Assembly: GCF_045037415.1 (NCBI RefSeq)
Contig: NZ_CP173438.1
Strand: one strand, 5' to 3'
Length of the DNA: 64,000 nt
DNA from: Escherichia coli
GTDB taxonomy: Bacteria > Pseudomonadota > Gammaproteobacteria > Enterobacterales > Enterobacteriaceae
Position 1 is the stretch's first letter; the number at the start of each line of letters is the position of its first letter. Shown here in pieces: positions 32,201 through 35,200 of this stretch. Made by a program: the position numbers.

Positions 32201-35200
32201 TCAAACATCACGGAAAATGCAGGTGTATTTATCAAGTTCTGACTTGTTAACCAACAGCAACACGATCCTGAAAGGTGCGGAAGATAATGGCGTAGGATTT
32301 ATTCTTGAAAGTAATGGTACGCCAGTCACACTTTTAAATATCACTAACAGCAGTAAAGGATATACAAATTTAAAAGAAATTGCGGCAAAGTCAAAACTTA
32401 CAGATACAACGGTTTCAATTCCGATAACGGCCAGTTACTACGTCTACGATACAAACAAAGTTAAATCTGGCGCACTGGAGGCAACCGCATTAATCAACGT
32501 GAAATACGACTAATAACAAGCAAGACGAGCAAGTGGCTAATAATAAAAATATTAAGGTGTCTGCATTCCCCCCTCTCTCCGAGGGGGCTTTTTTTTAGCG
32601 ATGATAAAAAATCTCACCGTCGTAGGCTTTAATGATTTTACCGTCGGTGTCGCTGATCAACACGTACGCGCCACCCATATAGGTCCAGTGCGTCCCGGCA
32701 TCAGGCGCGGGCAGGTTACGTAACTGCCACTGCTTAATGTTGTACTCATCGGTGCGGTACATCTCTGGGACGGTGTCACCTGGTTTGAAATGCTTAAAGT
32801 CAGCAATGAAACTGCTTAACTCATACTTAGAAATTCCCGAGGTATTGGTCGAACCCGCGGTGGCTGGTGCGGCCCAGGCGGCACTGGTAACCAGCAAAAG
32901 CGCACCCAGCAACATCTTATTTTTAATGGTCATAAACTCTCCACTTTGGGGATCTGTAATATCAGTCGCATATCTTTCCTGCCATACAATATAACTGACA
33001 AGCGATATTTTGTTAGTGATCCCATGATTTCGTAAAAAGTGTAAATGAAAGGATGCCCTAAAAGCATCCTTAGCGAGCAGAGAGTCAGCGGAAATAGCTG
33101 ATTTAAGAATCATCCTGGGCTGAAGATAACATGCAAGCCTAAAGGATTGAGTTATCGCATTATGCCCATGAAGCCATGTACGCCCATATACACACCAACT
33201 AAGCCAATCAACAGACTGGAAAAATAGGGAGCGCGTTTAGCGAGAGTGTTAAATCCGCTCCAGCGTTTTGCGACCTGCTGAACGCTGATTGCTGCGCCAA
33301 CGCCTACGGTGACAAGCGTTAACGCCAGGCCGAGGCTGAAACTGACGACCAGTGTTGTGCCCAGTGTCAGGGCTTTCAACTGAATGCAAATCAACAGCAC
33401 GGTAATTGCTGCCGGGCAGGGGATAAGGCCACCGGTTAAGCCAAATAGCAAAATTTGCCAGTTGGTGACCTCTCTACCATCAAAGCGTCGTTTAATGTCA
33501 TTGGCATGGGCTCGTGCATGGGCATCCTGATACTCGCCATGTTCGTGATGGTGATGATGTCCATGGTCGTGGTGATCTTCGTGATCGTGGTGATGATGCT
33601 CATGATCATGCTCGTGCATATTCTCCAGCCAGTTGCGTTCGCCGCGCCAGGTACGCCAGAACATCCAGAACGCGGTGCTAATAATGATCACTGCGGAAAT
33701 CAACTGGAGCCACGGTTCTGCTGATTGAGCAGTAAAGCGTTTGCTGATCACCATCCCGCCAAAGGCAATTAACCAGACCACTGCGGTATGCGAAATAGTT
33801 GCTGCCAGTCCGAGCATCACCGCCTGTTTAATGGTGCCTTTGATGGCGATGATAAACGCCGCCATCATCGTTTTTGAGTGCCCCGGTTCCAGACCATGAA
33901 GCGCACCAAGTAAGATGGCGCTGGGGATGAAGAACCAGGCGTTTCCTTGCTGAAGAAGTGTTGTAAATTCGGTCATGATAATAATTCTTAGTATTAATTC
34001 GGCAATCTGATTCTACTCCCCCCCAGTACCTGATACTACCCCCCAGTAGATTAATAGTGCTATGATTTTTCATATTCTTGTTAACCAGGTGTTGCCATGT
34101 CTCATACAATCCGTGATAAACAGAAACTGAAAGCGCGTGCCAGTAAGATTCAGGGCCAGGTCGTGGCGCTCAAGAAAATGCTCGACGAACCGCATGAATG
34201 CGCTGCAGTTTTACAACAGATTGCTGCTATCCGTGGCGCGGTAAACGGTCTGATGCGGGAAGTGATTAAAGGCCATCTGACGGAACACATCGTTCACCAG
34301 GGGGATGAGCTAAAACGTGAAGAAGATCTGGATGTCGTTCTGAAGGTGCTGGATTCTTATATCAAATAATTTCACAACGTTATTGTAATACCGCCGTTTT
34401 TCCCCGTTTACAACGCGTGCGCTGGACATTACCATCCTCCTCTGCGATTTATTATCGCAACCAAACGACTCGGGGTGCCCTTCTTTGTGAAGGCTGAGAA
34501 ATACCCGTATCACCTGATCTGGATAATGCCAGCGTAGGGAAGTCACGGACCACCAGGTCATTGCTTCTTCACGTTATGGCAGGAGCAAACTATGCAAGTC
34601 GACCTGCTGAGTTCAGCGCAATCTGCGCACGCGTTACACCTTTTTCACCAACATTCCCCTCTTGTGCACTGCATGACCAACGATGTGGTGCAAACTTTTA
34701 CTGCCAATACCTTGCTGGCGCTCGGCGCATCGCCAGCGATGGTTATCGAAACCGAAGAGGCCAGTCAGTTTGCGGCTATCGCCAGTGCCTTGTTGATTAA
34801 CGTTGGCACGCTGACGCGGCCACGAGCGCAAGCGATGAGTGCTGCCGTTGAGCAAGCAACACGATCACAAACGCCCTGGACGCTTGATCCGGTTGCGGTT
34901 GGTGCGCTCGATTATCGCCGCCGTTTTTGTCTGGAACTTCTGTCCCATAAGCCAACCGCCATACGTGGTAATGCTTCGGAAATCATGGCATCAGCTGGCG
35001 TTGCTAATGGTGGACGGGGAGTGGATACCACTGATGCCGCAGCTAACGCGATACCTGCTGCACAAACACTGGCACGGGAAACTGGCGCAATCGTCGTGGT
35101 CACTGGCGAGGTGGATTATGTTACCGATGGACATCGTATCATTGGCATTCACGGTGGCGATCCGTTAATGACCAAAGTGGTAGGAACTGGCTGTGCACTA

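Follow-up and report, generated by a model that had tools for sequence, protein, structure and literature searches.

The 64-kb window (the whole stretch of Escherichia coli DNA that was analysed, 64,000 nucleotides) carries, with a probability of approximately 95%, the canonical nickel-cobalt efflux locus of E. coli, rcnR / rcnA-rcnB; no result of the analysis spoke against this assignment. The promoter region shared by the divergent rcnA and rcnR genes contains a tandem pair of RcnR operator sites, and rcnA encodes a His-rich loop, the length of which varies among E. coli alleles. Both the operator pair and the His-codon tract are already known, and the finding is an ordinary one. The coordinates of the features are given in Table 1.

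Each of the three genes was assigned on the basis of curated family models. The rcnA product scored 558.6 bits against NF007454 (cut-off 195) and 233.6 bits against the Pfam family NicO (PF03824), and an rcnA annotation is present in 5,369 E. coli genomes. The rcnR product was above the curated cut-off of the RcnR equivalog model NF011613 (197.3 bits vs 138) and matched Pfam PF02583. Its translation has a short N-terminus and contains His3, Glu34, Cys35, Glu63, and His64, all of which match the published metal ligand set (PMC7055735); according to the literature, binding of Ni(II) or Co(II) via these residues and the N-terminal amine weakens DNA binding by RcnR. The protein corresponds to WP_000019944.1, and the nine E. 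coli annotations consulted all give the identical protein. Likewise, rcnB is annotated at this locus in RefSeq E. coli records. A sequence search for a solved homologue of RcnA gave none: only low-complexity His-tract matches to the tails of cobaltochelatases were returned, and these were rejected as structural homologues.

Table 1. Coordinates of the features at the rcnR / rcnA-rcnB locus of the window.
Feature	Position	Strand	Description
rcnB	32595-32933	-	downstream of rcnA, encodes a periplasmic accessory protein; Pfam RcnB (PF11776), 67.8 bits
rcnA (yohM) CDS	33152-33976	-	274 aa; Ni/Co efflux membrane protein; NCBIfam, Pfam, and ORF call
PulseNet O157 MLVA VNTR-19 reverse primer site	33413-33441	+	3 mismatches in the window
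His/Asp/Glu-rich run, MHEHDHEHHHHDHEDHHDHGHHHHHEHGEYQDAHARAHA	33503-33619	-	residues 120-158, within the central loop (residues ~109-174)
Degenerate tandem-repeat DNA	33539-33613		periods 9/12/18/21 in the loop coding region; Tandem Repeats Finder
PulseNet O157 MLVA VNTR-19 forward primer site	33659-33694	-	1 mismatch in the window
rcnA-rcnR divergent regulatory region	33977-34096		120 bp between both genes
Putative rcnA -10 hexamer, TAGAAT	34010-34015	-	overlaps the end of site 1; proposed from conservation
RcnR operator site 1, TACTCCCCCCCAGTA	34014-34028		TACT-C7-AGTA; minus strand, TACTGGGGGGGAGTA
RcnR operator site 2, TACTACCCCCCAGTA	34034-34048		TACT-A-C6-AGTA; minus strand, TACTGGGGGGTAGTA
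Putative rcnR extended -10 element, TGcTATGAT	34058-34066	+	-35 position would fall within site 2
rcnR CDS	34097-34369	+	90 aa; Ni(II)/Co(II)-responsive repressor, CsoR/RcnR family

Hydropathy and the positive-inside rule delimit a central loop of 66-67 aa between hydrophobic segments of RcnA, with 7 flanking Lys/Arg residues, and the loop is predicted to be cytoplasmic. DeepTMHMM predicts the same side for the loop of an RcnA homologue from cable bacteria (PMC11247825). The run within this loop contains 19 His among its 39 residues, vs 4 His in the other 235 residues of RcnA, and consists of CAC/CAT, GAT/GAC, and GAG/GAA codons. The original prediction described a long His/Asp/Glu run encoded by repetitive CAC/CAT/GAT codons. 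The run does exist and our codon reading agrees with that description, but the range proposed for it, 33433-33600, was shifted relative to the true run: this interval codes for residues 126-182, so that the run loses its initial six residues and gains approximately 24 non-His residues, which extend into the next membrane segment. Tandem Repeats Finder detected only degenerate repeats, and no pure head-to-tail array, in the allele of the window; the rows in the loop showed 73-90% matches, at most 3.2 copies, and a best score of 72 (e.g., period 18, 3.2 copies, and 74% matches at 33539-33595).

Across orthologues, the loop spans 36 to approximately 147 residues from the first His to the last His. 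Most of them keep a His-rich loop with 7-38 His despite complete sequence turnover, and at two Enterobacter-labelled loci the loop has 7 His only. In some genera, a folded insert of approximately 95 aa is present within the RcnA loop. This insert had no Pfam match, and Foldseek gave no match at E <= 0.001, returning only weak generic beta-sandwiches. The copper proteins CrdA and FetP are among the weak top Foldseek matches of the insert.

One paper states that RcnA could be an exporter, or a chelator through its His-rich loop. We regard RcnA as a NicO-family membrane exporter whose predicted cytoplasmic loop carries a His/Asp/Glu-rich metal-binding tract. There is some chance, well short of an even one, that the tract is instead a tolerant low-complexity linker in which length changes are neutral slippage and leave Ni/Co handling unaffected. 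Such neutrality would be in keeping with the enormous variation in loop length and sequence, with the insert carried by some genera, and with the coexistence of several length alleles in healthy E. coli lineages, yet it fits poorly with the retention of His-richness through sequence turnover in most orthologues and with the preservation of the reading frame by all indels; moreover, the Salmonella STTR5 alleles cluster in the middle of their range, from which the authors of that work infer functional constraint. The linker proposal is about the consequence of the tract and not its identity, and is compatible with the assignment of the canonical efflux locus.

The motif TACTNNNNNNNAGTA (TACT-N7-AGTA) has two matches in the whole window, both in the gap between rcnA and rcnR, vs a chance expectation of 0.26 per window, and at least two matches were obtained in 1 of 100 shuffles. 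On the minus strand, both sites fit TACTGGGGGGNAGTA (TACT-G6-N-AGTA) with 0 mismatches; when 2 mismatches were allowed, 0.16 matches were expected, and two matches occurred in no shuffle. Both spacers are 7 nt long (C7 in site 1 and A plus C6 in site 2), and the starts of the sites are 20 bp apart, approximately two helical turns. Two TACT-C6/7-AGTA sites in the rcnA-rcnR promoter, suited to the binding of RcnR tetramers, are what the original prediction had proposed, and the sites were found as such. They match the RcnR operator described in PMC7055735 and PMC3902906 as a tandem of TACT-G6-N-AGTA sites, each bound by a single tetramer. Both papers cite Iwig & Chivers 2009 for it, and their account of the operator also draws on Blaha et al. 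2011.

Conservation of the sites was examined in orthologous loci. Both sites are in perfect frame in 66 of 80 loci, representing approximately 25 genera; the 20-bp spacing is kept in 65 of these 66 two-site loci, and site 1 is identical in 65 of the 66. In 54 orthologous promoters, column conservation was 99.8% for site 1 and 99.0% for site 2, whereas the spacer and flanks were 43-56% conserved. The original prediction named a lack of conservation in orthologous promoters as grounds for its refutation; the operators are instead maintained at approximately 99%, against approximately 50% for the flanks. Only 4 extra matches to the RcnR operator motif were present in 409 kb of flanking DNA. Within E. 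coli, the divergent region is 120 bp in all seven aligned alleles, and the single substitution within a site among these alleles is found in IAI39, at the 'N' position of site 2. The 61 bp holding both sites are identical in 4,399 of 5,206 E. coli genomes. Among approximately 5,200 complete genomes, the C tract of site 1 is shortened to C6 in 118 and lengthened to C8 in 98, counts that may include homopolymer sequencing errors; in the genome listings, the C6 variants include O111-labelled strains and the C8 variants O121-labelled strains, again with homopolymer error as a possible source.

It is highly improbable that these palindromes arose by chance or belong to another regulator, such as the paralogue FrmR or Fur. 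FrmR is indeed a close paralogue, in that the RcnR of the window scored 76.5 bits against the FrmR model and its nearest solved structures are those of FrmR; the score is, however, below the cut-off of that model (133). The low number of matches expected per window (0.16-0.26) argues against chance, and the sites accompany rcnR across approximately 25 genera with fixed spacing and approximately 99% conservation. In addition, the published RcnR operator is the exact motif at the exact place, and PMC7055735 and PMC3902906 indicate that footprinting or ChIP of RcnR on 34014-34048, with repression lost in the absence of rcnR, is already published.

As judged from conservation in the promoter region, site 1 would overlap the -10 element of rcnA, and site 2 would cover the -35 position of rcnR. 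Positions 34010-34013, which lie outside the 15-mer of site 1, are 80-100% conserved in the 54 orthologous promoters, and a TAnnnT hexamer (TAAAAT, TAGGAT, or TATACT) is kept at the rcnA -10 position in divergent genera. The TG, TA, and final T of TGcTATGAT are likewise 80-100% conserved in orthologous promoters, and promoters with a single site also have TGnTAnnnT, located 9 nt past the last site. The proposed elements have conservation as their basis and were not recovered by a consensus promoter scan. Two candidates from that scan, TTGCCG-16-TATTAT on the minus strand, which ends 2 nt before the rcnA ATG, and TTAACC-18-TACAAT on the plus strand, which reaches as far as the start codon of rcnR, were rejected because they leave no space for a leader or a ribosome-binding site.

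In the literature, apo-RcnR is described as a CsoR/RcnR-family protein that forms all-alpha tetramers, one of which binds each type-1 site. RcnR is reported to read the TACT/AGTA half-sites together with the uninterrupted G tract, which has an unusual shape, and to repress both divergent genes from the shared operator. In the locus of the window, apo-RcnR tetramers occupying both sites would repress rcnA and rcnR, with the sites overlapping the putative promoter elements. Binding of Ni(II) or Co(II) to RcnR would then weaken its hold on DNA and de-repress rcnAB and rcnR, as the literature would lead one to expect.

The loop of RcnA was compared with that of other E. coli rcnA alleles, as suggested with the original prediction. 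The rcnA CDS occurs in lengths of 798, 804, 825, 837, 852, and 870 bp, which differ in the loop; the RcnA alleles are 265-289 aa long, and all indels fall in the His-rich run and are multiples of 3. Another loop length appears to be present in approximately 12% of the complete genomes (5,363 in total). In a sample of 60 evenly spaced genomes, 7 differ in loop length, by -21 to +33 bp, and all of the sampled genomes with an allele similar to that of the window (52/52) have equal length. The 274-aa allele of the window is of the common length and looks stable: it is not obviously unstable because its repeat is degenerate and its length is common to roughly 88% of genomes. The expectation of a tract prone to length variation therefore held for the locus more than for the copy in the window, which is degenerate and constant in those 52 genomes.

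Variation is more regular in O157:H7, where the genomes have spans of 349, 355, 361, 367, 373, or 397 bp at this locus and differ from STEC799 by -12 to +36 bp, always in 6-bp steps. Tandem Repeats Finder reported 13.2 copies of a 6-bp unit with a score of 116 in the O157 allele (locus L005). The short CAY/GAY/GAR codon repeats that encode the tract expand and contract by whole units without leaving the reading frame, and alleles with different RcnA loop lengths result; replication slippage is the simplest mechanism. A pure hexanucleotide, such as the (His-Asp)n array of O157:H7, would behave as a fast VNTR, whereas the repeat of the window is interrupted. It is scarcely credible that the differences in length are artefacts of sequencing or assembling repetitive DNA: long-read assemblies do often contain errors in homopolymers and short repeats, and one record has an rcnA frameshifted by a 1-bp deletion, possibly a sequencing error, but the loop indels are all multiples of 3 (and of 6 within O157:H7), the same lengths recur across many independent complete genomes, and routine MLVA types the locus by PCR fragment length.

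We consider it doubtful, although conceivable, that the C/G tract of site 1 and the in-frame His-codon VNTR provide a natural means of tuning Ni/Co efflux. If they did, slippage in the site 1 tract would set the half-sites at another distance and so make RcnR repress more or less strongly, and slippage in the loop VNTR would alter how much metal the RcnA loop can bind. The finding has little weight as a discovery: the operator pair is a textbook example of RcnR binding sites, and strain typing of E. coli O157:H7, Salmonella, and Klebsiella already makes routine use of the His-codon tract. The outcome is useful in that the annotation was validated, the loop coordinates were fixed, and the common 274-aa degenerate-repeat allele was identified.

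Compared with known systems, the operator pair of the window shows no difference in motif or placement from the tandem type-1 operator of E. coli RcnR, and K-12 MG1655 has an identical 120-bp region. This operator pair has already been reused in synthetic cobalt-inducible circuits.

The loop tract corresponds to established typing loci. The VNTR-19 primers of the PulseNet O157 MLVA flank the His-rich loop tract of rcnA; in the O157 allele mentioned above, the forward primer matches exactly and the reverse primer has 1 mismatch. The primer pair is published with a printed size range of 283-357 (PMC8461963), and the amplicon predicted from the window, 282 bp, is at the bottom edge of this range. 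VNTR-19 of O157:H7 is a pure (His-Asp)n hexanucleotide array, whereas the allele of the window is degenerate, with 74% matches. Salmonella STTR5, with CACGAC as its repeat in yohM, and locus 27 of the K. pneumoniae MLVA, with CATGGT in rcnA, are both hexanucleotide VNTRs that share their gene and inter-domain His-rich loop with the tract of the window, but they have other units and copy numbers, and their arrays are purer. (His-Asp)n runs are also found in the loop at S. enterica diarizonae and arizonae loci. The generic E. coli MLVA locus CVN014 was dropped as a candidate for the rcnA tract, as its source paper assigns no gene to it. CVN014 varies widely in length within ST131, whereas the rcnA loop is constant in length in most non-O157 genomes.

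The RcnA of cable bacteria has the same central, predicted-cytoplasmic loop, the length and His count of which vary by taxon; it is 100-123 aa long with 33-53 His, compared with 66-67 aa in E. coli, and the same study counted 17 His in the E. coli reference loop, vs 19 in the loop of the window (PMC11247825).

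The 64-kb window contains exactly two matches to the motif TACT-N7-AGTA, against 0.26 expected, and both lie between the divergent genes for the Ni/Co efflux protein RcnA (YohM) and the repressor RcnR, 20 bp apart from start to start. The tandem TACT-C6/7-AGTA pair of the original prediction is thus borne out. Read on the opposite strand, both sites fit TACTGGGGGGNAGTA without mismatch, and only 0.16 matches to this pattern with two or fewer mismatches would be expected in the window. The passages of PMC3902906 that summarise Iwig & Chivers (2009) describe the RcnR operator as two type-1 sites in tandem, each taking one tetramer, with contacts on the TACT/AGTA repeats and with shape readout of an unbroken G tract of A-form character. 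The same operator has been built into a cobalt-inducible circuit (PMC7105576). RcnA matched NCBIfam NF007454 (nickel/cobalt efflux transporter) at 558.6 bits and Pfam NicO at 233.6 bits. RcnR scored 197.3 bits with its equivalog model NF011613 and only 76.5 bits, below the cut-off, with the FrmR model, and it contains all of His3, Glu34, Cys35, Glu63 and His64, the published Co/Ni ligand set. A search for a solved RcnR structure found none, the nearest being FrmR.

Features of the rcnA-rcnR locus (window coordinates)
Feature	Coordinates	Strand	Remarks
rcnB	32595-32933		downstream of rcnA; Pfam RcnB match
Hairpin	33049-33071	-	GGATGC-N7-GCATCC, extendable; followed by a T-rich stretch
rcnA CDS	33152-33976	-	274 aa
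His-rich run	33503-33619		MHEHDHEHHHHDHEDHHDHGHHHHHEHGEYQDAHARAHA; residues 120-158, inside rcnA
Direct repeat, copy 1	33933-33946		14 bp, imperfect
rcnA-rcnR intergenic gap			120 bp, between rcnA (-) and rcnR (+)
Operator site 1	34014-34028		TACTCCCCCCCAGTA
Operator site 2	34034-34048		TACTACCCCCCAGTA
Direct repeat, copy 2	34083-34096		14 bp, imperfect
rcnR CDS	34097-34369	+	90 aa
TPP riboswitch	34461-34557	+	Rfam RF00059, 71.2 bits; thiM leader, downstream of rcnR

The operator reading stands on comparison with orthologous promoters. Scanning one genome per species with RcnR yielded 80 loci, from about 25 Enterobacterales genera plus one Vibrio, and a search of the 200 bp upstream of rcnR revealed two in-frame sites in 66 of them, spaced at exactly 20 bp in 65. 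Among these two-site loci, site 1 was TACTCCCCCCCAGTA in 65 and site 2 TACTACCCCCCAGTA in 57, while 409 kb of flanking DNA contained only four additional matches to the motif. On a MAFFT alignment of 54 promoters, conservation reached 99.8% for site 1 and 99.0% for site 2, compared with 43% for the 5-bp spacer and 56 and 49% for the flanks. Within E. coli, the 61 bp spanning both sites were identical in 4,399 of 5,206 genomes, and the sole within-site change among seven aligned alleles was one in IAI39 that affects the degenerate N position of site 2. Of four further single-substitution genomes, two had the change at 34009 and one at 34032, all three outside the 15-mers, and the fourth had C>T within the site-1 tract.

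Of about 5,200 complete E. coli genomes, 118 had C6 and 98 had C8 in place of the site-1 C7 tract (34018-34024). Among the variants, drawn from records H221-H290, C6 was found in strains named O111 (RM9322, 11128, 8B, 08-4347) and C8 in strains named O121 (RM8352, 16-9255, FWSEC0006); both C6 and C7 occur in O157:H7 genomes. These tracts could be either real slippage alleles that alter half-site spacing or homopolymer sequencing errors.

A single site was found upstream of rcnR (about 2400-2500 of the extracted loci) in Enterobacter sp. CC120223-11 (L056), Erwinia psidii (L077) and Edwardsiella anguillarum (L078). Their intergenic regions, 100-102 bp, are shorter by exactly one 20-bp unit, and -10-like elements on the rcnA and rcnR sides directly adjoin the lone site. 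Morganella has one intact site and a second, decayed one. In the Escherichia whittamii representative genome (L013, 1400-1440), the entire regulatory region and the first ~12 rcnA codons are deleted; the junction falls within the 14-bp direct repeat AACCAGGCGTTTCC / AACCAGGTGTTGCC (12/14 identical), and the deletion looks microhomology-mediated.

Beyond the 15-mers, conservation is highest in two places: the ATTC that immediately precedes site 1 (34010-34013) and TG-n-TA---T (34058-34066). The minus-strand sequence of 34015-34010 is TAGAAT, replaced in diverged genera by TAAAAT, TAGGAT or TATACT; we infer that this hexamer is the -10 element of rcnA and that site 1 overlaps it. For rcnR, TGcTATGAT (34058-34066) resembles an extended -10, and the corresponding -35 position would fall within site 2. 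Occupation of the pair would probably block both promoters, which fits the title of the paper by Blaha et al. A simple consensus promoter scan did not pick up either proposed -10 element, and its own two promoters were rejected because they abut start codons.

The 1.3-kb rcnA-rcnR region was present in 5,369 of 5,426 complete E. coli genomes, annotated as rcnA and rcnR in every case, which identifies the window as E. coli chromosomal DNA; approximately 57-63 genomes had no match to it. Strain 81EVA carries an IS3-family insertion in the rcnA loop region, CFSAN061772 has lost 1 bp of the gene (annotated as a frameshift), and the match in MS20675 is limited to the rcnR end. Inactivation or loss of rcnA is occasional. 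The hairpin lies about 80 nt past the rcnA stop codon in the 218-bp rcnA-rcnB gap, and the surrounding 61-nt segment folds as RNA at -12.9 kcal/mol; it may act as a partial terminator or as a processing site. RefSeq records carry the same annotation of the thiM riboswitch. In STEC799 and 1613 (L005 and L006), whose rcnA allele matches that of O157:H7 genomes, this riboswitch, present in the window and K-12, is absent beside rcnR (1606-1712), and the neighbour is an annotated 'outer membrane protein' gene on the opposite strand; the right-hand neighbourhood thus differs in that lineage.

Hydrophobic segments border the RcnA loop (residues 109-174), which has seven flanking Lys/Arg and is predicted to be cytoplasmic by the positive-inside rule. 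The His/Asp/Glu run that had been placed at 33433-33600 exists and holds 19 of the 23 His of RcnA, but that interval corresponds to residues 126-182, displaced in the direction of the membrane segment that follows. The codons of the run are CAC/CAT, GAT/GAC and GAG/GAA, repetitive as described. In six E. coli records chosen across the similarity ranking, the rcnA CDS measured 798, 804, 825, 837, 852 and 870 bp (265-289 aa); the transmembrane parts were nearly invariant and every indel was inside the run. Among 60 genomes evenly spaced from 5,363, 52 shared the length of the window gene, seven differed by -21, -15, +15, +21, +24, +27 or +33 bp, and one had an IS3 insertion; the length-variant class corresponds to 663 genomes (12%) at <95% identity. 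In one O157 locus the tract comprises 13.2 copies of a 6-bp unit, and the best 60 matches to this allele, mostly labelled O157:H7, spanned 349, 355, 361, 367, 373 and 397 bp, in 6-bp steps throughout. Tandem Repeats Finder detected only a degenerate repeat in the window (period 18, 3.2 copies, 74% matches). The predicted proneness to length change thus holds for the locus, but the window carries the common, interrupted allele, which looks length-stable.

Across genera, change is concentrated in the loop, which occurs as pure (His-Asp)n runs (e.g., S. enterica diarizonae, Hafnia alvei and Pseudocitrobacter), as mixed His-rich runs of 36-82 residues, and as a long form that carries a ~95-aa insert (RcnA length 359-383 aa). 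This insert, found in many Enterobacterales and a Vibrio (loci L031, L035, L036, L041, L043-L049, L051-L053, L064, L065, L067, L070, L073, L075, L077-L080 and L086), has the consensus DETRxIDTGHGxVELSIFE...WRLRTLSG...IPEPH.F.VRLSLGHRGHVHDYD. It matched no Pfam family; its AlphaFold model is an eight-strand beta domain (beta-sandwich; mean pLDDT 74), for which Foldseek gave no significant match in the PDB, the weak top matches including the copper proteins CrdA and FetP. Most loops stay His-rich, two Enterobacter-labelled loci having only 7 His, which argues for selection on composition rather than sequence.

The tract coincides with known typing markers. The VNTR-19 primers of the PulseNet O157 MLVA scheme matched the O157 locus, the forward exactly and the reverse with one mismatch, with the repeat between them; on the window they have one and three mismatches and bracket 33413-33694. 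PMC8461963 prints the same pair under the name VNTR-19. For Salmonella STTR5, the published location is 'between two domains of YohM', VNTRDB lists a CACGAC VNTR in yohM, K. pneumoniae MLVA locus 27 has the repeat CATGGT and is placed 'within ... RcnA', and expansion of the same loop has been published for cable bacteria (PMC11247825). Instability of the tract was, therefore, already known; the finding on operators and loop is likewise known, and the original prediction is supported with small corrections. The DeepTMHMM prediction for the cable-bacteria homologue (PMC11247825) agrees with the predicted cytoplasmic loop of the window RcnA.
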